A stretch of DNA of 64,000 bases from Amoebophrya sp. A120 (GCA_905178155.1 CAJINV010000003.1:5091700-5155699); one strand, 5' to 3'. Shown: positions 2,884 to 56,969, numbered from the stretch's first letter. Numbers and translations are program-made. The notes: generated from the sequence alone by a model not told the origin.

Positions 2884-5689
2884 ATGCCAGGAGTCGTGCC
2901 TGTGGCAAAAATGAGAATGCGGGCTCTCGTTCTTGCGTTTGTGTCCGTGGCGCTTCGCTTGCGCTGTTGCCTTGGATTTTCGTTGGACGAAAACGACATG
3001 CAGTTGCGCGAGGGTGAAGATGTGAACGCGGCCGTGGAGCGCGTGATGCAAAAAATGATGGTGGACCACCAGAAAACGAAACACAAAAAGCTTCACGAAA
3101 GGCGCCAAAAGATGCAGGAGGAGGATCGGTTTAAGCCGATCGCGAGGGCCGCGCCGCCAAAAGACGTGGTGGAAACGACACATCAAGGCGAACAAGACGA
3201 TGACGAGCTGGACGACGACGTGCAGCTGGACGAAGCGGGCACGAAAAATGCTGATGCCGCCGCGAGGGAGGACGAAGATGCCTCATTGTATACCCGGGCG
3301 ACAGCGTACGAGGAGAGTGGTGAGTACTTTCGCAACTACGAGCTCGCGGAGACGCACAAGATTATGGTAACGGATAAGTACCGGACGGACCAGTACCTGA
3401 AAGCGCTGCAGCGCGCCGGCGTGAAAGGCAAAATTGTGGTGGATTTCGGCTGCGGCAGCGGGGTGCTGAGTATCCTGGCAGCCCGACTCGGAGCGGACCA
3501 CACCTACTGCGTCGAGCGCTCCAGGGTTCGCGTGCAAGCAAAGCAGGTGATCGCGAAAAACGGGTACTTCCCATGGTTACTACACGCAGGCTTATTTTGT
3601 ACGAGCGACTAGCTTGCTTGTCGTGACAGTCCTGACGTTTTTCTACTCGCGAAAACTTCTACTGTGCCAAGCGCAGTAGAGGTATTCAGTGTGTGAATGC
3701 ATGTCTGTTCTGTATTAGTTCCTATCATGATCACGATCTATTGCCCAGATTCGCGGACCGCATCACGGTGGTGGCCAGCGTAAACGAGATCGAGCCGAAG
3801 TCTGCGGACGTGCTGGTGTCGGAGTGGATGGGGCATGGTCTACTGACGGATGTGGTGATCGGGGATTTTTTCGATGCCCGCGACCGGGTGCTCAAGGAGG
3901 ACACCGGGGTTCTGATCCCGTCCAAGGGCCGCATCTACGCGCAGCCGGTGAGCGATCCGGCCTGGTGGCGCGATAACGTGGCGTGGGGCACCGACAACGA
4001 CTACGGGATCGACTTTTCACCGCTCTCCCTCTACACGCGGTCGAACACCACCACCACGCCCATCCGGTTTGCCCATTTCGGCGTCTTCCAAAACCAGAAG
4101 TTCTACGGCGGGAAAAAGGCAGCGGTACAACTAGAGTGTTACAGAATGTTACCCCATCTGGTGCGCAGAATTCGAATTTTTGATATGTGTATTGTGACTT
4201 GTTTTGTAGTTCACCTTCATTGGTGCAAAAATCGGGAGCATGTCGTGGTTCAGCCGATGAACTTGTGCCAAGTTGTCCAAGCCTTTTCTGGGCTGCTTCC
4301 GCGCGTTGGATCCAAGCGATTCCGCGCAGCATTTTTCTATTGTGGTATGTACCATAAGTAGTACACGTCTCGTGGGAAAGATGCAGCAAATGCATCCGAG
4401 TTGTACTTCGACGCCACCCTTCTGTGCGCTGTTTGCAATGCTGGGTCTCAAACGGAAACAGATCTGCACGATCGACTTTGAAGCAGACAGCTACGACGCA
4501 GATTGGGAATGTGGTCGGCGTATCAAATGCAAAAATGTCTGGGTCTGGAAGAATGCAAGATTTGTCATGCGCATTTCTCATGACCCACGATGCCTGTAAT
4601 GCATGACCTAGCATCGCAGACTTTTAGAGGGCTTTCCGATGCACCTTCCGCATGAGAAATGCCCTGCCCGTGTAGCACAAACTGTGCCCCTCTTGCTGGT
4701 CATGCAATACAAATTTTTTTAGAGTCCAAAAACAGTTGGCCACTGGATTGTCCTTCATAGGCCGCCGAGAGATTCACTCGCCTCGCTCGATTTTTTTTGC
4801 TTCATCCTTCTCTTTTTGCTTTCCTTTTCCAAAAAACTATGCATGTAGGGATCGCACTTGACAAGATGGGCATCCGTCGCGGCGGGATCTCCCCGGGTTT
4901 GGTTTAGGTTTCAGGGTTTAGGGTTCCCCATTAGGGGGCCCCATTTTAGAGTCCAAAAACAGCATGACAAGTTGCAATCTTTCAGACCCAGACATTTTTA
5001 CATTTGATACGGCGCACCCGGCGGGAGCACAAGTTCCCGGAGCCGGTACCGGACGATTGGCACGGTTTTTTGATCACGTGGGATGTCACGCTCTACTCGG
5101 ACGTGACATTGGACACCTCCAACCCGACGCATTACACGCACTGGGGGCACTTGTTCTGGCCGCGACCACTGGACACGGACATTGGCAATGGGAAACTTGA
5201 GGACAAGCTTGAGCTGTCGGCATCGTTCAAATATGAAAACGGAACAGAACTCATGGTTTTGATACAACGCTTTTTTTCATTTCCGCGATCTACTTTATTC
5301 CACAGAAAGGACGCCTGTGCTCACCCGCCCCGGGTACTTACACGTACACCTGACACGACAACAAATTCTTTGCATAAAAGAGAGAAGTAGATTTTAAAAA
5401 AAATTCCACTGATGCTAGATGCAATCAAAATCATCGGGACCTATCTTGTCACCTCTATGACCAGCGGGCGAACCTCTATCACCACGACCTGCAATTCCGG
5501 TACTACTACCAGAACCACGGGGAGGAGGTGGTGCTGCGGGAGCCAGAATTTTCCGCGGACACGGTAGCGACCGAGGACGCTTTCCAGAACAAACGGCTCT
5601 ACACGGCCATGCTAGCTGCGAAGGCAAAAAAGCGAACAGAAGCCAAGCAAGACGCCATAGAAGGGAAAAAGAACAGAGTTGACCTGTAG
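2884..5689 (+). CDS. Type I protein arginine methyltransferase-like protein with N-terminal hydrophobic (signal-like) peptide
   Basis: Motifs YFRNY, HKIMVTDKYRT, VVDFGCGSGVLS (motif I), YCVE, DVLVSEWMG, RDRVLKE..GVLIPS and THW. Inferred exons 2884-3563, 3749-4124, 4462-4520, 5015-5255, 5465-5689 (GT-AG introns plus one TIR element). Ends ...KKNRVDL*. The start could be 2911. Confidence 0.8.
4521..5009. mobile_element. TIR intronic element (introner), family A, with nested insertion
   Basis: TIR tatcaaatgcaaaaatgtctgggtctggaa / ttcagacccagacatttttacatttgata. TSD cggcg at 4516-4520 and 5010-5014. Removal gives WECGRRTRREHKF in frame. Confidence 0.93.
4736..4943. other. 208-bp nested insertion with 19-bp direct repeat and telomere-like repeats
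   Basis: ttttagagtccaaaaacag occurs at 4717-4735 and 4944-4962. gggtttggtttaggtttcagggtttagggtt lies at 4895-4925. Removing the insert plus one repeat copy leaves 262 bp, the length of the sister element at 11415. Confidence 0.85.
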
Positions 5690-5766
5690 ACGACCGTTCA
5701 TGCGATCATGTCGCAATACATGAGCATCCTTTACTGAAGATGCCGATGTCGGCCTTCGCAGTACGT

Positions 5767-5987
5767 CGCACAGCGAGAATTTAGTTGAAGGGTCCTGCTA
5801 ATAATCCAAGTGTTAAACTGGGAGCCGCTACATCACGCTGCAATGTTCTGTGCGCCGCGTCACTGCTAGCCAAGTGAGTTTGTTTCATGTTGTGAAAACT
5901 TCGGTGTACTACGAAAAAGATCACTCGTGCAAGTACAACGTTCTCGTTCTAAAAAAAGTAGAGATCATAACTCACCGCTTCGCAGCT
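5767..5987 (+). repeat. Duplicated segment B (diverged copy of ~10665-10882)
   Basis: cgcacagcgagaattt...cgccgcgtcactgctagccaagtgagt...ataactcaccgcttcgcagct aligns with 10665-10882. Confidence 0.85.
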
Positions 5988-8428: not shown

Positions 8429-9029
8429 ATCATTCTTGGTCTATCGCGATAATACTCTGGTTCACCATGCATGCTTTTTGTTATGCGAATGCGAAGCATC
8501 TGATGTGAGTCAGTGGCAGTGAATTACAGGCATGACAAAAAGAAGCGGGATGTGTGTTGTTGCGCTAAATCAAAACCGTATTCTACCCCTGGATACCCCC
8601 GAGCCGATGAGCCGGCGAAAGATCGACCCGACGCGCAACCCCCGGCAGACGCACCCGCACTTGTACTTACTACAATTACCATTCTTCGGACTAGCGACCA
8701 CCAACTTGTAAAAGTAGTATACTTTGTGAGAAAGAAGTTGCAAGATAGTTTTCATGCTGCTCATACAAACTGTCAATGTTTCAGAGCTCTCTTCGCTGCA
8801 GCCATGAATATCTGTGCGCGATTCGGCTTCTATGCTTCTGAGAGTCTTTTAGCATCATGTTGATAGTGCATTTGTTTTTGTGAGCAATAGATAATGTTCG
8901 AAGAATCTGGTGCAAGAGCAGTTGCGTATTGGGGTGAGGTTTCAGGGTTCTACATGCAATATTTGACTTTTTTTGTCCTGAGAAAGTGGCTCAGGATAGT
9001 ATTACTACCATGATCCCAGGAGCACGCCC

Positions 9030-11367: not shown

Positions 11368-14300
11368 ATGTCGCAGACCGGAAAAAGGCAGCTGATTCAG
11401 GTGCACCAGTCGACTATCAAATGCAAAAATATCTTGGTCTGGAAGGATACAAGATTTGTCATGCATGTTTCTCATGACCCATGATGCTTGTGATGCATGA
11501 CCTAGCATCGCAGACATTTAGAGGGCTTCCTGATGCACCTTCCGCATGAGAAATTCCCTGTCCGGGTAGCACAAACTGCACCCCTCTTGCTGGTCATGCA
11601 ATACAAATTTTTTTACCGTCCAAGAACAGCATGACAAGTTGCATTCTTCCAGACCCAGACATTTTTACATTTGATATCGACGGTGAACCGGATCGCAAAG
11701 GACGGGCTGCGGCCCCGGGAGTGGATTTTCAACACCCGCACGCGGCTGTATCCTGAGCAAAAACGTCCACACCCCATAGTCAAGTTGGAAAATCAGCTAG
11801 ACAAATCCGCCAGCTTTGGTTGTTTCGCATGACAGGTTTGTCCTCGTAGTGTAATGCTGTTTAGCTAGTTCAGCAGCATCACAGACCTAACATATCGCGC
11901 TTATTAAAGCATCACAAATGCCAAAGCACAGCGAGAAAATGCTTGGCATGGGGCTCCGCACGAAAAACTTTTTTGGCATGCAGGTTTGCATGACAACTCG
12001 GGGCTGGGGGCGTTTTTACACAGGATAGGCTGCGCACCGGCATCTTCCAGGAGTACGTGCTGGACTACAAAATCCTCGACGTCTGCCTGGTTTTCAAGCA
12101 GACCCTGGAGCCCGGGCGGGTGGCGGAGGCGGTGGCGATTCTGTGCGCGTGGTACCCGATGCTGGCCGGGCGCGTCGAGTTCAGCCACGACGTGGCGGTG
12201 GCCGGCGCGAAGAAGTGGGTCACCCACAACGACAAGGGCTGCAGTCTGGTGTTGGCCACCATGGAGGGCATGGGCTACGCGGACCTGCACGACCACGACC
12301 GCACGATCGACCACCTTAACTTCTGCGACATCGAGACGGACATGCCCAACAAGATCCTTTCGGGCGTGGCCCCCGTGATGACGGTGCAGCTGACGAAGTT
12401 GCAGCGCGGCGGCTGCGTGCTCGGGATCGCCCTGTCCCACTGCGTGTGCGACCACGGCGGCCTGCAGCAGCTGCTCCAGGACTGGAGCAAGCTGTACCAG
12501 GACCCGCTCGCATTGATCATGCCCACGGCGAACGTCCCCGACTGCTACTTCAACGCGCCCTCCGGCGGCGAGATCCAGGCGCACATGCGCACCCTGGGGC
12601 TGATGCGGCTATCAAAAGGAAAAATCCCCCCTCCCCATATCGAAACGAAGTTTCTGATGCTGGATTTCCATACACAAATCAGATTTGTCTTGCAGTAGAG
12701 GACTGCAGGCATATGCCAAGCCTCATTCGAGAGGTTTTGACGTAGGCGCCTAGCATGACAAACGCGTATGCTCTTAGCCCAACAGCATCACAAACCGCCT
12801 GCAAAATGCGGAACGCTTTCTGGACTTGCCTTCTTGCAAGACAGACAGGATTTGAGGTCACAAATGCGCATCACAAATTTTCAGACGGGCACGCTTTCGA
12901 TATGGGGAGGGGGGTTTTTCCTTACGATAGCGACTGGAGCGCAACCTAAGCAACCAGCTGATCAAGGACGCCAAGGTGGGGCTCAGCCTGATCGGCCAGC
13001 GCCTGGCCTCCCACTGCCGCGAGCGCCCGGACCACGTCCGGCTGTCCTTCACGAAGTTTCAAAAAGACCTGTTGATCAACACGGCCGCGAACGACGAGGA
13101 GATCGACCACAGTGTCACCACCAACGAGGCCGTGCTGGTGTACATCTGGAACCTGATGCTGGACACCATCGAGTTTCCCATGGAGCAGCGGGAACACCTC
13201 GCGGTCATGATGTACGTGGACCCCAGGTCACGGGTCTCGGAAGCCGATGTGGGCAGCAGAGTATAGCGTTTGTTTGTACACTTAATTGAGACTGAGCTTG
13301 AGTTTTTGTTTTTGACCTATCACGAAATGAATTATCGTGATTGTCTGCATGCTGTTACTAGGTGAACAGCGCTAGTACGTGCATGCAGAAATCGCATTGC
13401 ACTGGCGTTGTACAGGTTTTCATCAATAATCGCGATGTCAATGGTGCCGGTAAAAAATCCAAAACCATAAATTTTAACAGACCTTCGGGAGCATCATAGC
13501 CGGGATTTCAGTTCCAGTCAACATGAGAGGGTCGCTCGGCACGGTAACGAGCAGCGTTCATTTTAGCAGTCGAAAGGCGCTGAGGACAGAGAAAATCGCC
13601 GCCAGTGTCAAGATGGAGGCTACTATCTTCCCCGAAAACGAGTCGGGTGAGGTCCTGTTCAACCCCCAGACCACAACAGAAAACAGCGGCTGCATCGGAG
13701 AGTGGTAAGAGCACAGCGGGGATCTCTGTTTTTTTTTGCTCGAAGAGTTAGTTTATTACATTGCCTAGTTATTGCGTTGTGCGCACCTCCACGGGTAGTA
13801 CAGGTAGAAGCGAGGGTAATATTAAGGTATCAAATTATGTACTCGTACCCAAGAATATTTGTTCCGCGGTAATATCTAAACAGGTTCTACGGCGCACCAC
13901 TGCTGGATTGGCAGCGAGGGACCAAGATGGCCACGTTTGGCGCGGACTTGGTGCGGTGCGAAGTGGGGTACTCCGGTGAGGTATCAAATGCAAAAATGTC
14001 TGGGTCTGGAAACTTGTAATGCTGCGTTGGGAACAGTGAATGCTCTGTAATGCACCACCAAGCATGAGAAATATCTGCGCTTCTTTGTGTTGCGTTTTTC
14101 GCATTACAAACTGCGTTTTTGCATGACAGGCAAAAGGGTCTCTTCTTAGACACGGATCGCAAACTTTTTGGTCATGCCAGACAAGCATGACAAATATCGC
14201 AATCTTCCAGGCCCAGACATTTTTGCAGTTCATATGAGGGTGTAAAGGTGTCTCCCCGGGTGGACGGCGGGTTGGACGTGTACTTGACACGCATGGACCG

Positions 14301-14463
14301 CCTCTACTTCAACGGGTGGCCAGAGACCTTGGCAAAGTACCCCTACAAAGGGGCGTTCGTCGACGAACTGAAGAAGAGGCACGATTCCTGGTGCCGAAAA
14401 ATCAAGCCGCCGCGACGAAGTGCGTTTAATTTTGCCATGGGGCTGATGGACGCCCAACAGTGA
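11368..14463 (+). CDS. BAHD/HXXXD CoA-dependent acyltransferase-like protein
   Basis: WYPMLAGRV, PVMTVQLTKLQRGGCVLGIALSHCVCDHGG (HXXXD) and an ATFG motif near the C-terminus. Inferred exons 11368-11414, 11682-11748, 12033-12609, 12935-13260, 13481-13704, 13884-13981, 14240-14463. All four TIR-element removals are in frame. Confidence 0.8.
11415..11676. mobile_element. TIR introner, family A (262 bp)
   Basis: TIR tatcaaatgcaaaaat... / ...atttttacatttgata. TSD tcgac. Removal gives VHQSTVNRI. Confidence 0.93.
11749..12027. mobile_element. TIR introner, family B (279 bp)
   Basis: TIR tatcctgagcaaaaacgtcc / gggcgtttttacacaggata. TSD ggctg. Removal gives TRLRTGIFQEYVLDY. Confidence 0.92.
12610..12929. 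mobile_element. TIR introner, family C (320 bp)
   Basis: TIR tatcaaaaggaaaaatcccccctccccatatcgaaa / tttcgatatggggagggggtttttccttacgata. TSD gcggc/gcgac (1 mismatch). Removal gives LMRLERNLSNQ. Confidence 0.88.
13982..14234. mobile_element. TIR introner, family A, second subfamily (253 bp)
   Basis: Left TIR tatcaaatgcaaaaatgtctgggtctggaa; right end slightly decayed (...tttgcagttcata). TSD tgagg. Removal gives GYSGEGVKVSP. Can be read as GT-AG intron 13981-14238. Confidence 0.9.
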
Positions 14464-19063: not shown

Positions 19064-20568
19064 TAATGCAACAGGAATGTTGCCTTTTTGTGCGCAGCGA
19101 GGCCGCAAGCCCTTGATTAGCACAACCTGCATGGATGGCCACAGGCACCTTCTCGTTTGAAGTCGTACGGCCCAGCGCTTAATTGGTCCTATCTACCGAG
19201 TTGTCAACGATGTTCTCTCCCTGACGATTCATTGAGGCGTGTCGTATGTAGTGAGGTCACCGAACGGGTCTAACCAGGGAGTTTTTTTGACAGCTACCCT
19301 GAAAAACGACCGGCAGTTTGCAAGCGGCCGGAAGCGTTTTTTGACAAAAAAAGTCTTCAACTATCAAGCCTCCGGGGCTTTGCCAACAAACAAGCCCGGT
19401 CGAAAACTATCGATTCGCACTTGATAAAACGACGCAGGGGAGCCGGCAAAAGGGGCGCCCTTCTGAGGCGCCCACCGCCTTAGTTTCTGGCGATTTGGGG
19501 CGCCCAAAAAGGAGCGCGCAAAAAACGCGCCCAAAATCAGAACAGCGAAACAGCATGGCACGGCCGCGATTTCGGAGCATTTTGGGCGGCCGCGAAAGCG
19601 GCCGCCTTTTCGCCGGTTTCAGAGCCTGGGAAGCTTTGCAAAAAGCGCCGGCGAGAAAAATAAAAACCCAAAAGAGAAAAAGCGCGCCAAACGCGCAAAG
19701 CCAATCCGCATGCTATGGGCCCGATTTTTCTTCGCTTTTTGGGCGTCCCCGTTGGCGCCCGGATCGGCCCCATAGCATGGGGGCTGGCTTTCGGAAAGGA
19801 ATCGCGGAAATTTGCCAAAATTTGCGATGTTCACCAAGCGGCCGCCATACCGTGCGGCCTAACGTTACTCGGGGCGGTATGGCGAGCCCAGAAAAAGCAA
19901 AGCCGCGGCCAAGGCGACGGCCGGCAAGAAAACGCCCACGACCTCACTACCTCCGCCCCGGCGGCTTTATTTGGTACTTCTTACGTATCAGTTCTTTATT
20001 CCCTCAGTCTCAGATAACTTCTGCGTGCCTGCTCCTCTGCTGCCATCGTTTTGATCGTCGTTCACGTTTTTGTTCAAAATGTTTCCGTCTCGTGTGTCAC
20101 GTTCGCCCAGCTTCGTCGCCACTGTAATGAAAGTGTGTGTAATAAAATATGGCACAGAGTCTGCCCCTGAGACGTCGGCTCCCTCGGTATCGTTCTAATT
20201 GGTTCTACTTGCTGGCACGTCCCAGCTGCATCCGCAAGGTGAGCTATTTTCTATCTCCATGCCACTTTTGTCAGTCGTGATTTCGTGTAGGATTAGATGT
20301 TGTGACACTTTCGTGCATTTTTGACGCTCCGGTCATGTTCATTTTCGGTAAAAGCAGAATTTGAATTTCCCATGGATTTTTGGCCAGCCTCCTCACCAAT
20401 AAATCGACTTCGTAAGGTTTTTCCCCCTAATATCAATTATAGACTACGTCTGCATGCCAGAAGCAGTTTTTGAGTAGACTCGATTTTTACTAGTTGTCCC
20501 ACAAGAATTCGAAACAAGAGTTGTCTTAATGCAACAGCAATGCTAATAGCGATAGCCAGTGCTGTCTA

Positions 20569-33536: not shown

Positions 33537-36500
33537 ATGTCCGCGGTCTCCTCGGGTTTGCGCGAGGGTTACGATGTTGGGCAGTGGGGAAGTTGGCGGT
33601 CCCATTCCGTCTTGCTTCACGAAGCGGTCGCGGAGCTCAGTTGGGGCGAGAAGGCAGCGGCGCTGCTAGAGGTTTTCCGCCGCCACACCAAGACGAAGAA
33701 GGGCTATCTGTCCCGCACGGAATTTCACGATCTGCTGCGTCGGTACCCGTGCTGTGATGCCAATTACTTCGATACGTTTTTCGAGCTCTTCGACCGGAAC
33801 CAGGACGACTTTGTCAACGAGTCAGACTTTCTCGCCGGTATGCTCGCCGTTTCGCCGGGCACCCCGCACAAGGTGGGCCCGGAGTCCCCCGCGGGCCAGC
33901 TGCGCATGCAGTTCATTTTTCTGTACTACGACTACAATCGCAACGGCAAACTCGAGGTCGAGGAGCTACGACGCCTGATCGAGCACCTGTTGCGCATCCG
34001 CGGACAGTATCAACTGCAAAAGTGTCTGGGTCTGGAAGAATGCAACTTGTGATGCTGCATTTGGATGTCTAAAAAATTTGTGTTGCATGAGCAGCAAAGG
34101 GAGTGCAATTTTTGCTACGGGAAGAGGGCATTTGTCATGCGGAATAGGCATCAAGAAGGTCTCAAAAAATCTGTGATGCTAGGGCATGCACAACAGACAT
34201 CATGGCCCATGCAAAACGTGCATGACAAGTCTCAGAAATTTCCAGACCCAGACATTTTTACATTTGATAGACAGGATACGGCCTCTGCGGACCGCGACTC
34301 GCAGGCACTGCACGCACTGGGGACGGGCAACGAGGTGTTTGGGAACCAGTTCGGGTTCCACGCCTTTTTCGACGCCTCCGCACAGAAAATGCTGAATGGG
34401 ACTTCGCAGCTTCTGCGCACGCAGCGCTGCCTCGCCGAAGTGATTCGGCAAGCAGAGAGCTTCCACCAAAGCGGTCAGCACGAAGTGGTGGCAACCAAAG
34501 CGCTCTCCGCACTCCAGCGCGCGCCCGGCTCTCCGATCGGGATGCCGCGCGGCAAGCTGGGGGCGAGCGCCGTTGCTGGCTCGGTCTCCGCGCTGCAGGC
34601 TTCTTCACCCATATTGCCGCAGCCGGCAGCCCCGGAAACAGGCATTTCCGCGTCGGTGTCTGGAGGAGTACTGCGCGACGGGAAGGCGGGCGCCTCTCTT
34701 CTCGGTGCTTCCGCGGCATTAGCGGCTTCTGTGGATCACGTGGATGCTGGCAAGCAGGTTGCATCGACCTCTGATAGCCCACTTCTCGTATCATCGTCAG
34801 CTCGCGGCAAGCAAAGACCCGATGGCTCTGCTTCTGGTGGGGGGGCTTCTCAACTCATCTCGCAGGAGAGCACCCCGTCCGCCAGCTCCCGCACAGCTGC
34901 ACTGGATGTGGCACGCACGCAGCAGAAAACAACGCCAAGTACCACTACCAAGGCAGGACCAACATGTCCGATCGGCGGAGTGTCTACTAGTCCCTTGCTG
35001 CGGCGCCCCAATAGCCCCTTCAGCTTGGGAACAGCGGTGCTCATGCAGCAGCAATTGCAGGACCAGCAGCCGAGCGGCGCGCAAGGCATTGCAAAACAAA
35101 AGTTGCCTGGACAGCATCACGCTGCCACGACTTCGCCGACAAACAAACCGTTCGCATGGCAGGGCCAGCACAGCAATTACTTCGTCGAACCCGCCACGAA
35201 GTCAGCTGTTTGCCCGACCGAGTCGGCTCTTCAGCACGCGCTTGGTACAGGACAGCAGGGTGGCGGCAGCTCTAGCAGCACCTCGCCGCGCGGAGCCAGC
35301 GTGCGCGGCGTGCAATCCGTGGGCGGGGGAGGGCAAGGGCAAACAACTACTTCGGTTCTAGAAGACGACGACGGCCCCGTGTTGCGACAACCAAGTCACC
35401 AGCGACGGCAGCCGGCTTTTCACTGCTCTGTGGATACTTCACACCCACCTGGGAGCTTTGTCCACCGGAGGAGTACCGACCCCAATCAGTTCAACAAGCA
35501 CGCGGTCCGCGGAGCGCCCCCGCCCGCGTACAACTCACTTTCAGCAGATGATCCGGACAACGCGGTCTCGTGGAACACACCTGAGTACTTTTGGAAAGAA
35601 ACTGTGCTGCTTGCTATTTGATATCAGTCCATCAAAGTTGTATAAAAAGGAGAGCCTCGTCCTGCTATTGCTACAAGGCCGCAGCTTATGTCGCGTAGTG
35701 GGAGGGTGAACGAGTGGACAGGGGGGAAAGAAAAACGCCAGAGGATGGGCAAGGGAAAAGGTTTCTGAAGCAGGGCGGGGCCAAGCATCTGCGCCACTTC
35801 TTGTTGAAAGAACCAAGGCGGAGCGTCTTGGCGCCCGTGGTTCCCGTCGTTGTGCGAGCGCGAGGACCCCGCCCGCATTGGAAGCGCGCCCGAGGTTGCA
35901 GGCCTTAGGCCCGACAACGCAAAGGCAAAGCGCGGCAGCGGGCGGGCGCCAGTGAACGGGGGAAGGAAGCAGGAGAACACCCCGCGCCATGCGCGGCGCC
36001 TGCGCGTGACGCCCCGCNNNNNNNNNNNNNNNNNNNNNNNNNNNNNNNNNNNNNNNNNNNNNNNNNNNNNNNNNNNNNNNNNNNNNNNNNNNNNNNNNNN
36101 NNNNNNNNNNNNNNNNNNNNNNNNNNNNNNNNNNNNNNNNNNNNNNNNNNNNNNNNNNNNNNNNNNNNNNNNNNNNNNNNNNNNNNNNNNNNNNNNNNNN
36201 NNNNNNNNNNNNNNNNNNNNNNNNNNNNNNNNNNNNNNNNNNNNNNNNNNNNNNNNNNNNNNNNNNNNNNNNNNNNNNNNNNNNNNNNNNNNNNNNNNNN
36301 NNNNNNNNNNNNNNNNNNNNNNNNNNNNNNNNNNNNNNNNNNNNNNNNNNNNNNNNNNNNNNNNNNNNNNNNNNNNNNNNNNNNNNNNNNNNNNNNNNNN
36401 NNNNNNNNNNNNNNNNNNNNNNNNNNNNNNNNNNNNNNNNNNNNNNNNNNNNNNNNNNNNNNNNNNNNNNNNNNNNNNNNNNNNNNNNNNNNNNNNNNNN

Positions 36501-39500
36501 NNNNNNNNNNNNNNNNNNNNNNNNNNNNNNNNNNNNNNNNNNNNNNNNNNNNNNNNNNNNNNNNNNNNNNNNNNNNNNNNNNNNNNNNNNNNNNNNNNNN
36601 NNNNNNNNNNNNNNNNNNNNNNNNNNNNNNNNNNNNNNNNNNNNNNNNNNNNNNNNNNNNNNNNNNNNNNNNNNNNNNNNNNNNNNNNNNNNNNNNNNNN
36701 NNNNNNNNNNNNNNNNNNNNNNNNNNNNNNNNNNNNNNNNNNNNNNNNNNNNNNNNNNNNNNNNNNNNNNNNNNNNNNNNNNNNNNNNNNNNNNNNNNNN
36801 NNNNNNNNNNNNNNNNNNNNNNNNNNNNNNNNNNNNNNNNNNNNNNNNNNNNNNNNNNNNNNNNNNNNNNNNNNNNNNNNNNNNNNNNNNNNNNNNNNNN
36901 NNNNNNNNNNNNNNNNNNNNNNNNNNNNNNNNNNNNNNNNNNNNNNNNNNNNNNNNNNNNNNNNNNNNNNNNNNNNNNNNNNNNNNNNNNNNTGGCTTGC
37001 AAAATATTCCGACTTGCAAAATATTTCGACTTGCGAAATTTTTTGGCTGGCAAAATATTTCGACTTGCGAAATTTTCTGGCCTGCAAAATATTCCGACTT
37101 GCAAAATATTTCGACTTGCGAAATTTTTTGGCTGGCAAAATGTTTTGCGCTGCGAAATATTTCGAGGTGCGAAATATCTTGAGTTGTGAAATATTTTGCG
37201 TTGCAGAGTATTTCGCTTTGCGAAATATTTTAAGTGGCAAAACATTTCGCGTTGCAACATAGCCGGGAGCTGCTGGGCGATGGGAGCCGGGCGATGAAGG
37301 TCGGCAATCGAGCGATGGGAGTTGGGAACCCGTGCTTTCTGCTCTCCCCGTGCCGCCCGCTTTCAAAGCTGCAAAAACGGGGGAAGCGGTTTCTTCGGGG
37401 GGTTGATGTTGCGAAAAATTTTCTGGTCAGAATAGTTTCCGAGGGTGGAAAAAGATTCTGAGTTGCAAGATATTCCGACATCCAAAATATTTTGCCTCGC
37501 AAAGTATTAGTTTCGAAATATTTTGAGTTGCAAAATATTTTGCGTTGCAGAGTATTTTGATTCGCAAATTATTGCGAGTTGCAAAATATTTTGCGTCGCA
37601 AAATAGTCGGGCGATGGGCATTGGGCGATTGGAGTTGGGCGATGAAAGTTGGGAGCTGGGCGATGGGGATTGGGAAGTGGGCGATGAAAGTTGGGAGCTA
37701 GGCGATGGGAGTGGTGGCTAGTTTGGCGATGCGAATTGGGCGGTGGGCGGTGGGCGATTTCGCAAATCGCGAAACTTTTGGGACGTTTGAAAACTGTAAA
37801 AAAATTTTCGGCGTGGACGATTTTCCTCCCCGTCGCAAAATTTTAACTTCCGCAGCTCAGCAATAGGAGTTATATGCTTTGTTGCAGCTCTATTTTAGCT
37901 TGCCAGAATACTTATACTCAAACTCATCTAGAAGTTTCGTTTCCCTTTGTTCATCTACTGTAGGGCCATCGCGCTCCGGATCGTGCGGAAGGTGATGGAA
38001 CTGAGCAACGACCCAACGTTCGAGTGGCAAACGCGCCCCTCGCTGGTGACCGCGGAGGAGCTGATGGAGCTGTGCGACTCCGTGTTCGAGAAAATCTCGG
38101 AGGAGAACTCGCTTGTGCGTGTCGAGCTGCCCTGCCGCGTGTACGGGGACATCCACGGGTATGGAACTGTCAGGATCGAAATTGACAAAGTCGAAAAATT
38201 TGTGATGCATAAAATGCATGACGCGAAATACGTGTGTTGCAGAGCGGGCAAGTGAGGCCGATTGTGGGCCTGTTTGGGTTTATTGCTCGAGCTGCTAAAG
38301 CAGCATGAGAGAATCAGTCCTCTTTGCCTAAACAGCATTACAAACTGGATTTAGGCACCGCCAGAATTTGTGATGCGCCATTTAGAAACTGGGTTCGAAC
38401 TGGAATCCATTTTATGCATGACAAATCATTTCGCTTTTGTCAATTTCGATTCTGACACTTCCATAACGGGCAGCTGCCGGACTTGCTGCACTTCTTCAAC
38501 GCCTTCTCGTGGCCCGACAAGCGGCGGGGCGACATCTTTGCGATGAACTACATTTTCCTCGGGGACTTCGTGGACCGGGGCAATTACTCCGCCGACGTGG
38601 TCACTCTGCTGTTTGCGCTGAAAGTGCTCTACCCCAAGAAGATCTACCTCGTGCGCGGCAATCACGAGGACCGGTTGATGAACCAGAACTACGGATTTCT
38701 GCAGGATTGTCACTTCCTCTTCCCCGGCCCTGCTGTGGACACAGCAGGAGGTGGTGGGGAACAACTGCATGGAGAAGAGAAGGAAAACAATAACGCAACC
38801 GACGCCAGCAACGCGGAAGAAAACACCGTCGGGTAGAAACAAATAGTTGGGGTTGAAGATGCCTTGCCTTGTATACAGGCGGAAGTGCAGCTGCAAGGTT
38901 TTTTTGTTCGGACTCTCGCAAGAAGTAAAGAAATCGAAAAATATACGAATCAGGTTTCAGGTGTGGGAGCGCGTCAACGATGCGTTTGAATTTCTACCCA
39001 TCGCCGCACTGGTGGATGACCAGGTACTGTGCATCCACGGTGGAATCGGGGATTCGATCCACAGTTTGGACGACCTGCGCGACATCCCGAAGCCGATCAA
39101 GATCTCTCCCGAAATCACCGAGGAAACCACCCGGCAGGACAAAATCGTGTTGGACGCGCTTTGGTCGGACCCGACAGATAATGACTCCGTGCTGGGCGTC
39201 CACCTGTCCCCCCGGGGCCAAAACACCTGCCGCTTCGGCCCCGACCGGGTGCACGACTTCAATAAGCGGAACAACCTCAAGATGATCATTCGGGCTCACG
39301 AGTGCGTGCAGTATGGGTAAATAAAAGTGCTGGAAAATTTTGATGCTGCACATGAATGCAACTCTGATGTCCTACCAAGCGTTGTAATACCTAGATTGAT
39401 ACCAGCGCCGCGCCTTCATCTCTTTACGTAATAGATGTGTTGTTCGAAGTTTTCTTTAATATTTCCACTTCTTGGAGGACGTCGATGAAATCCATTCGCG

Positions 39501-39747
39501 TTTTTGTTCACATCATTACAGCTACGAGTACTTCGCAAACGGCCAGTTGTTGACCGTTTTTTCCGCCACGAACTACTGTAACCAGTACAATAACGACGGC
39601 AGCATGGTGGTGCTCATCAAGAATCCCGACGGTTCAGTCGCCGAGCACGCACAGGTAATTCGCTCGGGTGCCGCAGACACGGCCCACGGTTGGGCCCCGG
39701 AGCAGTACCGGGACCCATCGCCAATGCGAGGGAATTCTGCATGTTGA
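33537..39747 (+). CDS. EF-hand-containing PPP Ser/Thr phosphatase (EFPP-like; BSU/PPKL-type catalytic domain)
   Basis: EF-hands DRNQDDFVNESD and DYNRNGKLEVEE. Catalytic motifs GDIHGQ, GDFVDRG, RGNHE, HGG, LWSDP, RAHE and FSATNYC. Exons 33537-34007, 34275-35584, 37964-38159, 38471-38832, 38954-39316, 39522-39747. Confidence 0.88.
34008..34269. mobile_element. TIR introner, family A (262 bp), opposite orientation to the 11415 copy
   Basis: TSD gacag. Interior aligns with the reverse complement of 11415-11676. Removal gives RGQDTASAD. Confidence 0.92.
36018..36991. other. Assembly gap (N run) inside phosphatase intron 35585-37963
   Basis: Run of n bases. Confidence 0.99.
36992..37760. repeat. 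Two interleaved degenerate tandem arrays (gcaaaatatttcgactt-type and tgggcgatg-type)
   Basis: Many ~18-bp units with a near-palindromic aaatattt core at 36992-37260 and ~37400-37605. gggcgatg/ttgggag units at ~37265-37330 and ~37608-37760. Confidence 0.85.
38160..38465. mobile_element. TIR introner, family F (306 bp), splitting the GDIHGQ motif
   Basis: TIR tatggaactgtcaggatcgaaattgacaaa / tttgtcaatttcgattctgacacttccata. TSD acggg. Removal gives GDIHGQLPDLL. Confidence 0.95.
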
Positions 39748-47719: not shown

Positions 47720-50700
47720 ATGAGTGCAGATGACAATCTCTGGGGCGCATGGCTGGATGTCCGCGATCGGGACATTGTGAAGGAGAATGCAGACGCGGCG
47801 TTTGGGCGGCCCCGGAGTGCGCCAAGCACGAAGACAGCGGCTACGCTGGCGCGCCCAAGCTCCGCCGCGGCATGGTTGCAGCGGAGGCAATCCGAGTTGC
47901 AGCGGCGCCGGGACGTCGCAGAATACACTGCCTCCCCGGGGGGCTCTCCGCTCCTCGGAGCGGAATACAATTACACGTCCGGTGGCAGCAGCAGCAGTAC
48001 GAATCCCAATCCGCAGCTGGCTGGTTCTTCTGCAACAACCGATGGACAACAAGTCGCAGCGCCGCGGGTGCAAAGTGCGACAGCACGTCCACCACATGGG
48101 CATTCAAGCCACCGAACCACAGGAGCTAGTACTGCCAACGGAGCAGACGAGGAAAATGTCCTGACTGCGCAACCACGCCCGAAGACGGCCATTGGGATTC
48201 CGTCTCGGTTTAAGGTGAACACACACCTGATAGACTTTTCGCGCAAGGGCTTGTCTCCCTCCTTCCGAACGGGCACCGGAGTAGGCGCAGGAGGAGCAAC
48301 AGCGAACAAAATCGGCAACGGCACCGGCCCGAGCCGCGGCGACGAAGACAACACGCCGCTGGGTGGGGCACGAGTTCTTGCGTCAAGAACCAGTGACCTT
48401 GCGGCAGCAGACGCGACCACCGCCAAACCGGCGATGTCGCCCATTGTTGAGGAATCGTCCATCCTCACTGCAGGGGAGGAAAATTTTTTGGAGAAGAAGC
48501 GCATTATGTGCGAGAAAAGTCCGAAAAAGAGTATTTTCTCGATGCTGAACATAGAGCCGGCCGCTGCGCAGCCTGAAGTCGTAGAAAAACCGAGCTCGTC
48601 GCCGGGAAATAAACAATCCATGCCGCGGACCCCAAGCCGGCTCCCCTCGTCGCCCTCGTCGTCACCTCTCGCCATTGCGCGCCAAGGCAGCACCGCGACC
48701 CTCGAGGTGGCCGCGGGTGAGAGCGGCGACGCGGACTCGGCGCAGCGGACCGCCGGGCCTCCCCGCAGCGCCAGCGCCTCGCCCTCGAAGCAAAAAAGCG
48801 GGGTCGAGTCGCCGCAGCAGATCATGGAGCGCTTGCAGAAGCGGTGGCGCGCGTACCTCGAGGGCATCGCCGCCGAAGAGGAGGCTCGGCAGCGCAAGGA
48901 GAACTGGAAGCGGCGCATGGCCGAGGTGGAGAGCAATCGGATGTCCGCACACGACCGTCAGAAGTTCTTCAACGAGATTCGGTACAAGGCGCAACAGGAC
49001 TCGCACTTCCACGGGCAGTATCAAATGTAAAAATGTCTGGGTCTGGAAGGTTGGAACTTGTGATGTGCATTTCACAACACAGAAAAATCTCTCATGCATA
49101 GGCGGCAAAAGGTGCCCATTTCCTGTCACCAAAATGGGGGATTTGTGATGCGGATTAAGCAATGCGGAAGCTTCTCGAAATCTGTGATGCTAGGGCTTCC
49201 ATGACAGGCATTCTGTGTCATGCAAAAACAGCATGACAAAAATCTGCATTCTTCCAGACCCAGACATTTTTACATTTGATAGGCAGTTCATTCTCGCGCA
49301 GGCCACGGAAATGCTGCACCAAAATATCAAATGTAAAGATGTCTGGGTCTGGAAGAATTCAGGTTTGTCATGCTTGTCCGGCATGGCTCTTAAATCTGTC
49401 ATGCACGTTACCCAAGCGCTCCGTTTTTCTGTGATGCAGCGGCGCAGTTTGTCATGCAGAATAGGCAACACCTAGGAACTCAGAAACTTGTCATGCTGAG
49501 CCAGCATTTGTAGCCTCATCATGAGACGCCACCCAGCATCACAAGTTTCCAGACCCAGACATTTTTGCATTTGATACAAAACGCGGAGCAACCACTGGAC
49601 GCCGCGCTGCGCTACCGGCTTCAAACCCTGCTCGAAAAGGCGGCTCAGGTCACCCACGGCGACAACGTGTCCGCACTGCTGCTGCTGGCTGCTCTTGAAG
49701 AAGAAGAGAAGAACTATACCAAGGCACGGCAACTGCACGCCACGATCGTCCAGAAAGCAAAGGAGGGAAACGAAATTGCGCTCACTTGCCTCGTGGAGGT
49801 TGCGGAGTTTCGGGAACGCCAAATACAACGCGACGCCGACAACCGCCGGAAACGCGCACGAAAAAAAAGCATGATGAAGGTTCTACTTCGTGTGTTGATA
49901 TATTCTGCTCCTGGAAACAAGTACAAGTAGAACAGCAAAGTACCAAATAAAAGCTTTGACCTTACTGATAGAATAGATGCTAGGACCGGATTGATTTTCC
50001 TATCCTGTCAATACTCTCGTTGCGGGTCGTACTCTTCGTTTGAAACTTACTTCTAGCCGCACTTACAGCTGCATAGCATAGAGTCAAAATCATGTTCAGG
50101 TTGTACCGAAGAAAAAATCGACAAATCGAGGGACAGCAAACGTCATCGCGGAGCTAGCGATGAAACGCGAGGAGGTTGAGCAGCCCATTCTGAAGTACAC
50201 GGTGCAGCAGGGCTTCCTCGAGCCCATGCGCAAGGCGCTGCTGCGACTGACCGCACAACACCCGTCCGACAAGCGGCATCTGGACAGCCTGAAGCGCAAG
50301 ATTGCGCAGGAAAAGGCAAAGGAAAACCGGGAGCATGCGCAATCTCTGGCCACGCTGAAGAAAATTTCGGGCGGTTTCTTCATGCAGGGCGCGGCAAAGA
50401 CCGACAACAGCGAAGTTTCACACATGGAGAAAATGCGGCTCAAGCTGCTACAGTCCACAAAGCTCGCGGTGGATGTGAATACCATGATGCAAAGCACCAG
50501 TTCCGTATCTAGGAAAAAACAACCATCCCCATCCATTTTATGCATGACAAACAGAGGACTGCGTGCATGCTTTGCATGACAAATTGGATGGGGATGGTTG
50601 TTTTTTTGTGGATATTCCGACGAGGAGAAGCGGCGAAGAGGCGCGCGAAAAAAGCCACTGGTAAGCGAGGACACCGTGGTGCAGTGGATTCCGCGCGAAT

Positions 50701-52917
50701 ACTATCAGAATGAGAAGGTGGCGTATCGAAGACAGATCGACCGCGGCTACGATGAGAAGTACAGTTTTTTACTGCAAATTTCTCACACGCATCGTTGCTA
50801 CAACGCCGGTTCGGTTGTGCTTGCAGCTCCGCCTCCCTCATGGGGTTTTGTAAGGTTTCTATAAGTAAAATTTTCTTGAACTTGATTTCATCTTCGCACG
50901 GCATTGATTTGTTCTCTCCACCGCGACAGGTTCGACCAGGAGGTAACACTGAATCATGCTGGCGTCATCACTTTTCACACGCGAATGGCCCGGGCAAACT
51001 TTGGACAGCAACGTATTACAGTGAAAAGTGCCCCCCACCCCCAAAGTTGCAAAAATTTGTGCTGCGAAGTTTCCAAATGAAAACTTTTTGTCATGCATGA
51101 AAGGAGGACGAATCTTTCTGATGCAGAGTCTAGTCGTGTTTCGCATCGCTTGCATGACAAGCACCGCTCTTCCTGGGATCTTTTGCAATACAAATTTTTG
51201 CTATTCACGATCGGAAATCTGTGATGCTGATACATGCAAGAGGGCGAATGTTTCATTTGGAAAGGTTTGCAATACAAATGCTTTCAAGTTCGGGGGTGGG
51301 GGCATTTTTCATTGTAATACAACGACGCCCACAAAAGAAAAAATCGCGAGGCCAGTCGCTGCTGAAGAAGGCGTCCACGCTATCCTATGTAAAAACGTAC
51401 CCACCCCATAGTTGTCATGCAATTCTGCATGCCAAAAAAGTAAAAGTTTCTCATGCGGAGCCCTATGAGAAGCATTTTCTATTCGTGTTTTGGAATTTGT
51501 GATGCTAGAATCAGTATGGTAGGCTAGCTCTGTAATGCTTCTGAGCTAGCGAAACAGGATTACACTACGAGGACAAACTTGTCATGCCAAACGACCAAAG
51601 CTGTGTGATTTGTCAAGCAGACTTGACTCTGGTGTGGGTACGTTTTTACTCAGGATACACGCAAATGCTCGCAACGGGGTACCTACACTTCGTATTTTTT
51701 TAGCTGCAGTGTTGTTTTCTCATTCTTTCGCACCATTTTTTCGCGGACCTGCTTTAATTTTTTAGTTGAGTCAGTCCATTTTCGTTTCACTCACATTCCG
51801 TGCCGACGCACACTGCGTACATGGAACAAATCGAAACAGTGCTTTGGTAGAAGATACTGCGGCAAACGTGCGCGACGGGCTAGATTCTCCGAAGGAGCCA
51901 CCGGAGGCCGGAAGGTTGCACGTGGAGCGTCCGCAGTCGACACTGATGAAACGACGACCGGACAGCGCGCCCTACCTGCGCACCTTGCACACATGGGACT
52001 CGAGTAAAGGTTTCGACGTTTTCTCGATGATGCACGGCAAATCCGAAGACTACAATCACGCCGTCCGAAGCGCCGCGACGCTCGTCAGTCGGCGGCACAA
52101 GCGCGCCGCCAAGCAATCCGCGAGTGTTTCGCCCGACGGCCGCAACAGTGAAACGTCGTCCCCCACCTTATCTCGCTCGCCCTCGGTGTCCCCCAAGCGT
52201 AGTGAAAAAGAAGAGCCAGGAGCTGCAGCACCAAAGGTCGTGGGATCGAGTTCCACTTCGAAGGAAAGCAACGCCATGACGCCGACTGTCCGCCGGGTTT
52301 ATTCTGTAAAGGAGAACTCATTCCGCTCGCTCTCTGCAAGTCCGTCAAAGCAACAAAAGGACAAGAAAGGTACAGACAATGTGATTGGTCGGGTGCGTGC
52401 TGTTTTGAGCTTCTGCTTCTTCCATTTTCTGAGAAAAATGAATGCATAGTTTTTATCGTCCGAAAGCTTGTTGCGCACTTATTACCTCGCATCGTGCTCA
52501 GAACTTCTTCTAAATGAGGAGCACGCGGCGACGGCTTATGTTGTCATCACCCGCGTGCCAGATGCGCAAGAGGATAGACATTTAGAAAAATATCGATCCT
52601 TGTAAATTTGCAACTACTCCACAGGCGAGCACCACCACGCCACGGGCCGCAGTTTGCTTGAGAGTAGCTTGAAGCTTGCGAAGCTACCGCCGAAGTTGGA
52701 TCCGGACGAAATAGATACCTACCCCGACCTGGATGTTGCGAAGCTGTTCCCCATAGAAACGAAGGTCCAAAACCACGATCCACGACGAGTTCGCCGTTCC
52801 TACGGCCTCGTTCCCACGGAAACGCCAGACCCTCCTGAGGACGACTTTGCGTTGCGAGCGCGACCACCAGAGCGGGCATCACCAGAGCACTGCTTCCGCA
52901 CTGCTGCCCAAAGCTGA
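47720..52917 (+). CDS. Large hypothetical protein interrupted by five TIR introners and four canonical introns
   Basis: Inferred exons 47720-49018, 49287-49324, 49582-49879, 50100-50505, 50620-50758, 50930-51013, 51325-51380, 51663-51678, 51840-52387 and ~52625-52917 join without stops. No domain recognised. Confidence 0.65.
49019..49281. mobile_element. TIR introner, family A (263 bp)
   Basis: TIR tatcaaatgtaaaaatgtctgggtctggaag / cttccagacccagacatttttacatttgata. TSD ggcag. Removal gives HGQFILAQ. Confidence 0.93.
49325..49576. mobile_element. TIR introner, family A, second subfamily (252 bp), opposite orientation to the 13982 copy
   Basis: TSD caaaa. Removal gives LHQNAEQPL. Interior aligns with the reverse complement of 13982-14234. 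Confidence 0.92.
50506..50614. mobile_element. Minimal TIR introner, family D (109 bp)
   Basis: TIR tatctaggaaaaaacaaccatccccatcca / tggatggggatggttgtttttttgtggata. TSD ttccg. Removal gives STSSDEEKR. Confidence 0.9.
51014..51319. mobile_element. TIR introner, family E (306 bp)
   Basis: TIR tattacagtgaaaagtgccccccacccc / ggggtgggggcatttttcattgtaata. TSD caacg. Removal gives FGQQRRPQKK. Confidence 0.9.
51381..51657. mobile_element. TIR introner, family B (277 bp), opposite orientation to the 11749 copy
   Basis: TIR tatcctatgtaaaaacgtaccca / tgggtacgtttttactcaggata. TSD cacgc. Interior aligns with the reverse complement of 11749-12027. Confidence 0.92.
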
Positions 52918-54084: not shown

Positions 54085-56969
54085 ATGGGGTGTGGCGTCA
54101 GCTCCAGCCAAAAGCCGGGCGACCTGCAGGTGCAGCAGTTGCGACGCCGACTAACGGTCGCACAGCTCGATAAGGTAGACGGACAGGAAAATGGCAATGA
54201 GGATGGCGCAGACGTCGAACGCGGTCTCTTGCAAAAGATATCGGATAAGAGTACTACAATTTATCTCAATCCATTATTTGCTAGCAAACAAAGACCACGA
54301 ACAAGATGGTGGTAGTTTATTCACCGAGCTGCACTATGAATGCGCGAATGCACGTATGCTCGGCAGCGTGCATTGATAATTACCTAGCGCGTGTTTTATT
54401 TCATTCGGGCAGCATCCATTGTAATCAATCCAACTCCGAGGTATCTTGGAAATCGCCGATGAATTGAGCAAAGTGCTAGACAATGCGGACAGCACAGAGT
54501 CACCGACAAAAAGTGCAAGCGGAAAGACACCGAAGAGGAGAGTCAGCATAGGTACTAAATCAATGATGAACGGACGATCTTTTTTGAAGCATCAGAGCGA
54601 AGACAAACTGGTTTTGCTGGGGAATGCAGCCGGTAGAGGTCCGCGCGCAGATGCCATATTACGGATTTTTCGAAAGGATGAACTATAGGGAGATGAAAAG
54701 CAACTACTGTGGTCACGACAGGCTCTGAGACAGACAAGAACGCCAACAAGCGACAGAGCTTCAAGAAGAAGGACGAGTACAGGATAGGAGACGACCTCGG
54801 CGAAGAAGAGATTCGTATCGGATACTCGTGCAGGAAAGGTTTGAAACCCGAGTCACCCAATCAGGATAGCTGGTTTGTCTTGCTGGTATAACTTCATATA
54901 GTCGATTTTTTGTTTTAGGATCGTCCCCTGCCGCGCCGGGGGTGTACATATTGGCTGTCGTTCCTGCCGCACCAACATCTACGGATGAAAAAAGAGCGTG
55001 AGGGACGGTCTGCGTGCTTCCTTATCGCGGTAGACAAAGAATTTGGTAGTTGCTGTGGATTTTGTAAAAAAGAATTCTGAAAAACATAAATCCCCAGCAA
55101 GAAAACGAACTTGGGATATACGGCGTTTTCGACGGCCATGGCGCTAAGGGGCACGATGTGAGCAATCTGGTGAAGTTGTACCTTCCCAAGCTCATCCTGA
55201 CCAGCGAAAAGTTTTCGGAAGCACCGGAGAGTGTGATGGTAAGTTGCTTCCATCGCATGCAGAACCTCATCCAGGCCCACGACCGCAAGGGCCTCCTGAA
55301 CGCCCAGCTCTCAGGGTGCACGTGCACCATCGTCGTTCACGACATGCGCGAGGACCGCCTCGTCGTTGCGCATGTGGGCGACTCGAGGGCAGTATTGGTC
55401 CGGAAAGAAGACGGGGGCGACAGGTCTTCAGTTCTTATCATTTGTTTTGCATGTCGTGCACGGTGCGGTTGTAACGATCTACTTTTGGCTTGTCACCTGC
55501 GGGTTCTTGGTTCATCTAATTACTCTGTGCGCTGGATCTGATGCACCATCGGTATCGGATATCATTGACTTTGATGATTTATGACAGGGTAATCGCTGAG
55601 GACTTGACCCGTGACCACAAACCCGACCTGAAGGAAGAACGAGCCTACATTGAGCGCAATGGTATGATGAAAGAAGTTTTTACTGCTTTCATCTTGAGTC
55701 GGTCGGGTGCCTCGTGCGTATGTACTTAGTAGAATACTTCTTCGCAAGTCAAACGATGAAGAATGCATCCTCCGCGGCGCTCAGATACTTTATACATAGA
55801 ATTTCACTGCATTATCGATCTGCAGGTGGTAGGGTAGCGTTTGACGGGTTCGCAAACCATCGTGTGTATGTGAAGAACGGAACCTACCCGGGTCTCAACA
55901 TGTCCCGCGCCCTCGGGGATCTCCTCGGGAGCACCAACGCGGGAATTAACAACACTCCCGAGGTGCGGGTGATCGACCTGCCCAGGAAGACGGGGGGTGC
56001 CCCCAATGGTTCAGCACTTTCTGCCGACGGCACCAGGGCCATTCTCCTGATCTGCTCCGACGGCGTTTGGGAATTCGTCTCCTCAAATCAAGCAAAAGAC
56101 TTCGTATTTTACTTTCTTCTGTGAAAAATCTCGCGTGGGCGTGGTCTAGTACTAATGGTTTGATGTTCGACAGGAATAGAACTACACGTACACGTCTTCA
56201 CGACGGACAACGTTTGATCACAATCTAACAGGCGATGCGGTTTGACGCAAGGCGTGCAAAGGATGCAGCCGAAACGCTGGCCAAGGAGTCTTGGGATCGC
56301 TGGATACATGAGTTATCGTGGAAGGCTTGAGGGCAGGAGAAACTGTTGTCTGGCCTTAATTGCTTTCTCTGAAATGCATGCTCTAGACTTGGACTACTTT
56401 TGCAACGAATTTTGAAATGACAAGTCTCCTTCTGCTAGGCATTGCCTACGCAGTAGGATCGGAACTCGAACTTGTTTTTTTCACAGCTTCAGAAAAGAGT
56501 GTCAGTTTCGGCAGAGCAAGTGTCAGCCAAATTTGACTTGCTCTCAAATTTTCCCAGAATACGAAGAGGGTGGCTGCGTGGTGGATGACATCTATCCTGT
56601 CGAAAAGCGACGATCCCACCCCAGACTTGTCATGCAGATTTGCATGCCCAGCAGCACGCGTCGTCTGACCCCCGATGGCAGTATAGTAATTTTCTAGCCG
56701 CTTTTCCTCGAGATTTGTCATGCTCTATTCAGCATAAGAAAGTGCGGCATGTGTGTATGATGCGGCTGAACTACCTCGGAACGACTGCCGTGCAGGTCCA
56801 AGTCAAACTTGTGTTAAAGTCACATAGTCTGTTTCTGCAGAGCCAAATACCTTGTCATGCAGCGAAGTTTCTGCATTTGTTTTGTTTAGCTGATTTTTAA
56901 ACATCTTTGCGGTGGAGTGGGTACGATTTCCGTCGCGATAACATTACCACATTGGTCATCTACATCTGA
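54085..56969 (+). CDS. PP2C/PPM-family protein phosphatase with predicted N-myristoylation/palmitoylation
   Basis: MGCGVSS start; motifs RKGLKPESPNQD, YGVFDGHG, SGCTC, AHVGDSRA, DHKP, GLNMSRALGD, ICSDGVWE and terminal VVDDITTLVIYI*. Multi-exon; the junction near 56310-56565 is unresolved. Confidence 0.85.
56593..56940. mobile_element. Diverged TIR introner (348 bp) splitting the PP2C DDIT motif
   Basis: Imperfect TIR tatcctgtcgaaaagcgacgatcccacccca / tggagtgggtacgatttccgtcgcgata. TSD acatc/acatt. Removal gives VVDDITTLV. Confidence 0.82.

Follow-up and report, generated by a model that had tools for sequence, protein, structure and literature searches.

Amoebophrya sp. A120 is known to carry 29,850 repeated introns in 1,954 families (Farhat 2021; PMC7789003). 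They were described there as about 240 nt long with non-canonical boundaries, with inverted repeats composed of TAT, seven variable bases and a run of at least three A, and with direct repeats of 3-5 nt, given as 5 bp in the legend of Fig. S19. The same paper compared them with MITEs and offered a hairpin-guided splicing model, the splicing itself being left unresolved. In a later classification (Gozashti 2025; PMC12130899), of which 57 of 58 A120 rows of one dataset were covered here, most A120 families were listed as TIR DNA elements of unassigned superfamily, and family 38, of about 808 bp and with Copia-like homology, carries the entry "5-bp TSD, TA/TA termini".

The elements described here are published A120 introners, and the finding as such is already known. 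A sequence-only reading of the locus had overstated its novelty: the TAT start, the 5-bp repeats, the families, the MITE comparison and the hairpin splicing already stand in the passages of Farhat 2021 (PMC7789003) cited above, and the 5-bp TSD with TA/TA termini had been noted for family 38 (PMC12130899). A120 TIR families in the tables of Gozashti 2025 have the same lengths as here (106-350 bp), whereas the automated TSD calls for other families are 2-6 bp or none. Direct repeats are reported as variable in the text of Farhat 2021 and were uniformly 5 bp in our sample; that text describes neither a family-specific nor a shared internal signal, while a shared motif was found here. In the text searched of Farhat 2021, Gozashti 2025, PMC11453091 and PMC9860276, this motif, the clustering of insertions at 30-100 bp, the codon-phase bias and the explanation of the published boundaries by alignment were not found.

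Elements of the window and the larger sample

The window is the whole analyzed stretch of 64,000 nucleotides from Amoebophrya sp. A120. All 13 elements named by the sequence-only reading were found at their starting positions, each with TAT at the start and ATA at the end. Using an exact 5-bp repeat and an arm score of at least 9 as cutoff, 11 TAT..ATA pairs were obtained, compared to a mean of 0.02 (maximum 1) in 50 block shuffles of the window, which defined the chance level. An inverted-repeat scan blind to TAT gave 11 pairs with an exact 5-bp flanking repeat, and all 11 begin with TAT. The claim of 5-bp TSDs everywhere held for 11 of the 13 elements, which have exact copies; the copies at 12610 and 56593 match in only 4 of 5 bases, the in-frame difference being synonymous in both. 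The elements are as follows, no strand being assigned to them:

4521..5009, introner, TIR type A, TSD CGGCG; in the methyltransferase gene (+)
11415..11676, introner, TIR type A, TSD TCGAC; in P0001
11749..12027, introner, TIR type B, TSD GGCTG; GC-AG register possible; in P0001
12610..12929, introner, TIR type C, imperfect TSD GCGGC/GCGAC; in P0001
13982..14234, introner, TIR type A (second family), TSD TGAGG; GT-AG register possible; in P0001
34008..34269, introner, TIR type A, TSD GACAG; in P0005
38160..38465, introner, TIR type D, TSD ACGGG; in P0005
49019..49281, introner, TIR type A, TSD GGCAG; GC-AG register possible; in P0004
49325..49576, introner, TIR type A (second family), TSD CAAAA; in P0004
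50506..50614, introner of 109 bp, TIR type E, TSD TTCCG; in P0004
51014..51319, introner, TIR type F, TSD CAACG; in P0004
51381..51657, introner, TIR type B, TSD CACGC; in P0004
56593..56940, introner, B-like TIR, imperfect TSD ACATC/ACATT; AT-AC register possible; in the PP2C-family gene

The host genes are the following:

3301..5216, plus strand, part of a methyltransferase gene (PrmA-like match on exon 3301-3564); holds 4521
11368..14463, plus strand, P0001, Transferase family (PF02458); 4 introners and 2 GT-AG introns
33537..39747, plus strand, P0005, EF-hand and Ser/Thr phosphatase (PF00149); 2 introners and 3 GT-AG introns
47720..52917, plus strand, P0004, no Pfam family; 5 introners and 4 GT-AG-type introns
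55131..56969, plus strand, part of a PP2C-family gene (PF00481 on exon 55131-55418); holds 56593

P0004 is an orphan of 1052 aa, with no other relative among the longer proteins searched. The 12 clustered window elements fall into 6 TIR types, in agreement with the at least six TIR sequences claimed. Multi-copy clusters include 12 of the 13 elements (4521 via its alignment to 11415), and 56593 was placed in none of the 30 largest clusters. An HMM search with the 12 largest families listed no further copies in the window, and Rfam gave no family there. The sequence logo of the element ends reads TAT[CG]; an A-run after TAT and seven variable bases was present at 12 of 13 left ends, 38160 being the exception. 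The elements are AT-richer (GC 0.40-0.47) than the window (GC 0.53). The 4521 element is a sister of 11415 plus a secondary insert of about 227 nt. This insert (window ~4722-4950) is flanked by a 19-nt direct repeat and contains TTTAGGG-like repeats, and the enlarged element still breaks an open frame.

Several other repeats were observed in the window. A separate MITE at 7929-8310, which resembles PIF/Harbinger, lies in an apparent ordinary intron; its inverted arms are 119 nt long and start GAGCGGGG, and its duplication of 3 bp reads CAA. The intergenic repeat at 19244-19727 is not a TAT element and shows 73% identity to a stretch in loci L049/L050. At 36992-37874 an AT-rich imperfect repeat array, matching the loci too, adjoins a 976-base N gap in a 2.4-kb intron of the phosphatase gene. 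Finally, about 1.45 kb at ~60185-61670, apparently intronic, is bounded by a repeat of about 35 nt with a third copy near 60886 and is possibly another mobile element.

For a larger sample the commonest terminal repeat was used in a scan that yielded at least 145 stretches, which gave 142 loci with a total of 621 kb. All 77 of the listed loci belong to one assembly, which may or may not share the strain of the window, and family counts are biased, the loci having been chosen around one TIR type. Loci and window together contained 358 short elements in 40 clusters, or 494 after homology search. Among 460 nearest TAT/ATA pairs, 304 had an exact adjacent repeat of 5 bp, while repeats of 2, 3 and 4 bp were found 41, 7 and 1 times; beside the 304 exact TSDs, 57 had one and 14 two mismatches. 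A reading-frame classifier, which called strand and frame correctly at all 13 window sites, placed 271 of 325 elements in coding sequence versus 424 of 898 random sites. Low-confidence elements were dropped in the analyses below, so that 256 exact-TSD elements of 372 classified, or 400-420 of 494, were kept. The largest family is oriented with the gene 44 times and against it 43 times. Terminal TAT/ATA bases were changed at 29 of 2,400 sites (1.2%, with ascertainment favouring a low rate), and of 26 copies that combine an altered terminal base with a perfect TSD, 24 nevertheless sit in coding sequence.

In the non-overlapping loci, elements account for 21%; the highest densities are those of L065, with 22 elements in 12 kb, and of L072, with 23 in 10 kb. 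Four intact, high-scoring elements (L054 55-363, L018 2940-3262, L007 10802-11125 and L047 6665-6946) have flanks that share no repeat, as recombination between copies or assembly joins would produce.

Removal junctions and splice registers

Exon queries from P0001, P0004 and P0005 found deposited Amoebophrya sp. A120 proteins with 100% identity. At all 11 junctions in these genes the deposited protein corresponds to the element and one TSD taken out, and the deposited intron length equals the element plus 5. Taking out 4521 or 56593 plus one TSD also gave an open frame. In P0005 the 38160 element interrupts the GDIHGQ motif of the phosphatase domain; the motif is restored on removal, and GDIHGQL was present in 68 of 78 fetched proteins. 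The 56593 element sits in the last exon of the PP2C-family gene, where its excision yields VDDIT. Each of the 13 window elements contains stops in all three frames, so that conserved genes depend on having them taken out in frame. The A120 gene annotation was built from transcript alignments (Farhat 2021; PMC7789003), and the 11 junctions in these transcript-based models, with the published tables, are indirect support for removal at the RNA level.

When the junction was slid within the TSD, a GT-AG register was possible for 13982, GC-AG for 11749 and 49019, AT-AC for 56593 and none for the other nine elements, exactly as assigned before. Taken as a signal, these 4 of 13 canonical registers did not stand: in the larger sample canonical registers were found in 29 of 256 elements versus 27.1 expected, with 22 on the antisense strand, and AT-AC registers (12 of 256 versus 9.6 expected) were equally at chance. 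No base bias was seen at any TSD position, TSD composition being that of the exons. Arm conservation was alike at the 5' and 3' ends for positions 4-30; for positions 31-60 it was a little higher at the 5' end (uncorrected P 0.005). A G before TAT was considered as a donor signal and rejected: it precedes 8 of the 13 window elements, yet in the larger sample it was seen in 84 of 256, versus 76.6 expected.

Simulated removal of the element with one TSD, in which the junction was slid to the best per-base match with GT-AG or CT-AC, which is BLAT's junction rule, matched both published tables with r 0.98 and a distance of 0.09-0.10. No fixed register fits both intron ends in these tables. For family 2 of Gozashti 2025 (PMC12130899), 69% of starts are given as NT and 68% of ends as AN; all nine A120 pairs called "predominant" in Table S4 of Farhat 2021 were among the 15 commonest of the simulation. 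The published splice-site diversity is thus reproduced as aligner sliding inside the TSD. Since a perfect 5-bp repeat hides the cut, annotated boundaries are uninformative on the real cut, and the border position was already called unknown in the legend of Fig. 3 of Farhat 2021 (PMC7789003). For strain A25 all nine predominant boundaries in Table S4 of that paper are TT-NN, which would also follow from a junction at a TTA element end within the TSD. The sequence-only proposal of a precise, AG-independent removal leaving one TSD is supported by the deposited junctions, the chance-level registers and the simulation; for its structure-guided part the evidence is indirect.

TSD mismatches amounted to 2.9, 5.0 and 8.0% at codon positions 1, 2 and 3, or 3.9% at positions 1-2 versus 8.0% at position 3 (ratio 2.05, CI 1.4-2.9). 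This ratio fits one coding and one free copy, and, being twofold, it suggests that identity of the repeats is probably not needed. Polarisation of the mismatches, tried for locating the cut, gave no pattern. For a gene with TSD mismatches at positions 4 and 5 the representative-protein search returned an unspliced gene call and weak A25 relatives only, which set no bounds on the cut. About one in five elements, 12610 among them, has a mismatched TSD and would reveal the cut from existing RNA reads.

A shared motif, clustered insertion and mobilisation

With TIRs, a constant TSD length, no coding capacity and many copies, the elements have the features of MITEs, which supports the earlier description as non-autonomous TIR elements with one terminal signature. 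They share a short internal motif, T[GC]T[CGA][AT]TGC, found at 17.3 per kb in elements compared to 0.36 in shuffled sequence and 0.62 in the rest of the window; for the form TGT[CGA]ATGC the enrichment was 48-fold. Two or more copies were present in 346 of 358 elements, in 35 of 40 cluster representatives and in all 13 window elements. At 37 of the 80 ends of the cluster representatives the motif lies 30-48 bp from the end and faces inward. Of 140 same-orientation pairs, 24 had a spacing of 31-33 bp, with a peak at 31, versus a null mean of 3.7 (maximum 12). Phasing of 10.5 bp from the ends was modest (R 0.30). After masking of ends and motifs the interiors of the 20 largest clusters showed no alignment, and the motif ties most of these otherwise unalignable families together. 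Private change in the motif was 4.2% versus 8.9%. This conservation does not separate a transposase site from a splicing-factor site; the motif could equally serve a splicing factor, and motif pairs also extend the RNA stem. Either way it offers a starting point in the search for the transposase or splicing factor that is still missing.

Subterminal transposase sites in TIR transposons would be expected to show such a layout, and the case for one mobilising lineage rests chiefly on it; the common lineage proposed from the sequence is in this way backed by a motif running across families. The motif likely binds one common transposase. We consider it fairly probable that one integrase-like transposase lineage binds the motif, whose inward-facing pairs are separated by three turns of DNA, and cuts with a 5-nt stagger. 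The suggested search for long transposase-coding copies gave none in the window or in the 621 kb of loci. No autonomous partner with the same ends was found among 14 longer pairs from loci and window, TAT/ATA pairs above 2 kb were rejected as chance pairings of separate elements, and viral contigs gave no match. The text of Farhat 2021 (PMC7789003) likewise reports no transposase in A120 and argues against transposase-mediated spread. The best lead to a candidate transposase would be the Copia-like family 38 of Gozashti 2025, with its TA/TA termini and 5-bp TSD.

Insertions were found to be clustered. In 66 non-overlapping loci 151 of 375 neighbour distances were 30-100 bp, compared to null means of 48, 65 and 75 (maximum 96), while 14 were below 30 bp versus 23-39 in the null. 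In the window the gap from 49019 to 49325 is 43 bp and that from 51014 to 51381 is 61 bp. Close neighbours were of the same family 11 times versus 19.2 by permutation (P 0.017), so that local hopping was rejected. Avoidance of the same TIR class among close neighbours was not significant (P 0.05-0.12), and same-TIR neighbours exist (49019/49325). Facing arms were as good as own arms in 18 of 162 close pairs. The distances form a single peak at 40-70 bp, and a nucleosome-repeat or 10-bp periodicity was discarded. For canonical introns, located with a rough intron finder, a deficit of elements was seen only under 30-45 nt. No target-site preference was found at base level, nor at dinucleotide level after correction. 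Of 400 TSDs, 169 begin at codon position 3 (169/120/111; P 7e-4), compared to 146/141/137 for random sites; given this bias, a cut behind TSD base 1 or 4 would fall in phase 0. Protein or chromatin on an existing element may attract mostly different-family insertions 30-100 bp away, a proposal we hold to be evenly balanced, and the clustering at this distance is a testable targeting rule.

Proposed mechanism, rivals and related systems

In our reading the elements are non-autonomous TAT...ATA exon transposons with 5-bp TSDs and a shared putative transposase, and their RNA would be removed under guidance of the stem, leaving one target copy. This account as a whole has in our estimation somewhat more for it than against it. 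Its most probable step is that the two TIRs pair and bring the exon ends together, replacing GT/AG recognition, which we regard as likely. The 38160 element folds into one long hairpin (z -10.65); in 40 folded elements the terminal bases were paired in 26 and unpaired in 14. A folded family alignment with mixed orientations showed the terminal stem only and no covariation. As catalyst the resident U2/U5/U6 spliceosome core without U1 is slightly favoured. The cut may lie one base outside TAT, N|TAT, which would give +2 U and +3 A as in the GTA donors of this genome (the GT-AG introns of P0001, P0004 and P0005 mostly begin GTA); this position is a guess that may well fail, with weak hints in its favour from the 5' T, changed once versus seven changes at the 3' end (P 0.07), and from the codon-phase bias of the TSDs. 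More tentative still is a single system, in which an unclassified transposase derived from a Copia integrase binds the motif and nucleates adjacent insertions, while the excision machine measures from the stem base and reads no splice-site sequence. If such a stem-measuring machine exists, a single fixed cut underlies all of the published "variable splice sites".

The main rival to a spliceosomal core is a nuclease plus ligase that recognises the terminal stem and acts independently of the spliceosome, a route suggested for the nonconventional introns of euglenids; in that case the motif may be where this machinery binds. We regard it as rather unlikely. It agrees with the missing base preference at splice positions, the occurrence of both orientations and the lack of donor/acceptor asymmetry, with U1 not being detected in A120 (Farhat 2021; PMC7789003), and with the full-length circles in which euglenid introns with TIRs and TSD-like repeats exit (PMC11282704). 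However, A120 has a near-complete spliceosome and GT-AG introns in the same genes, the Fritillaria non-canonical transposon introns covered by the same source are spliceosomal (PMC11282704), and the motif spacing peak of 31 seems nearer to the pitch of B-DNA than to that of A-RNA. As for mobilisation, several unrelated transposases or RNA-based copying could have spread the families, with the motif selected for splicing only. No transposase was found in window, loci or, as reported there, by Farhat 2021, and the tables of Gozashti 2025 (PMC12130899) place A120 families in several classes; still, one TSD length, one terminus and one motif at fixed distances from the ends across unalignable families make this improbable.

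Two further explanations concern the product of removal. DNA-level (IES-like) removal, or a one-TSD junction created by a reverse-transcriptase jump across the hairpin with a different true product, appears very improbable to us. A hairpin with a short direct repeat is a known setting for this artefact (PMC8240250), but the elements are present in two assemblies (window and loci), their stops in all frames would still have to be removed in frame from conserved genes, and the free decay of one TSD copy argues against a repeat-dependent jump. An intron that extends one base beyond the element at either end (N-TAT...ATA-N), with an extra codon in the mRNA, is largely refuted and is given hardly any credence. 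It would explain the pairing of NT starts with AN ends in the published percentages. It fits none of the 11 deposited junctions, its simulation gave 100% NT/AN with a distance of 0.31-0.35 versus 0.09-0.10 for one-TSD removal, and non-wobble mismatches at TSD positions 2-4 were not lower than at 1 and 5 (3.6% versus 4.5%).

Compared to known systems, the preferred reading of stem-guided RNA removal departs from both U12-type introns and ciliate IESs. U12-type introns have the consensus RTATCC as 5' site, which N-TAT[CG] resembles, an AC or AG end and the snRNAs of the minor spliceosome. Ciliate IESs have TA boundaries and leave one TA after somatic DNA removal. A U12-type identity was rejected, AT-AC registers being at chance and U11, U12, U4atac and U6atac being reported absent from A120 (Farhat 2021; PMC7789003). 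A ciliate-type IES was rejected as well, the introner repeat being a variable 5-mer and the elements being present in both assemblies. The introners of Micromonas and Aureococcus (PMC9860276) are also MITE-derived exon introns with TIR and TSD; as described there they use canonical sites from TIR and TSD, whereas the A120 elements need none. Ginger2/TDD elements (Bao 2010; PMC2836005) share the TIRs, and TDD-4/5 the 5-bp TSD; they have an integrase-type transposase, Gypsy-integrase-like in Ginger elements, and the same type of mover may be supposed for the introners. They differ in that no transposase was seen in the window or loci for the introners, that Ginger ends read TGTNR versus TAT[CG] here, and that Ginger2 prefers RTATAY targets while the introners show no target preference. 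Euglenid nonconventional introns, as covered by PMC11282704, have in common with the A120 elements the non-canonical junctions, a TIR stem joining the ends, TSD-like repeats and a likely MITE origin; they belong to another lineage, have other end motifs, and their circular release has been shown.
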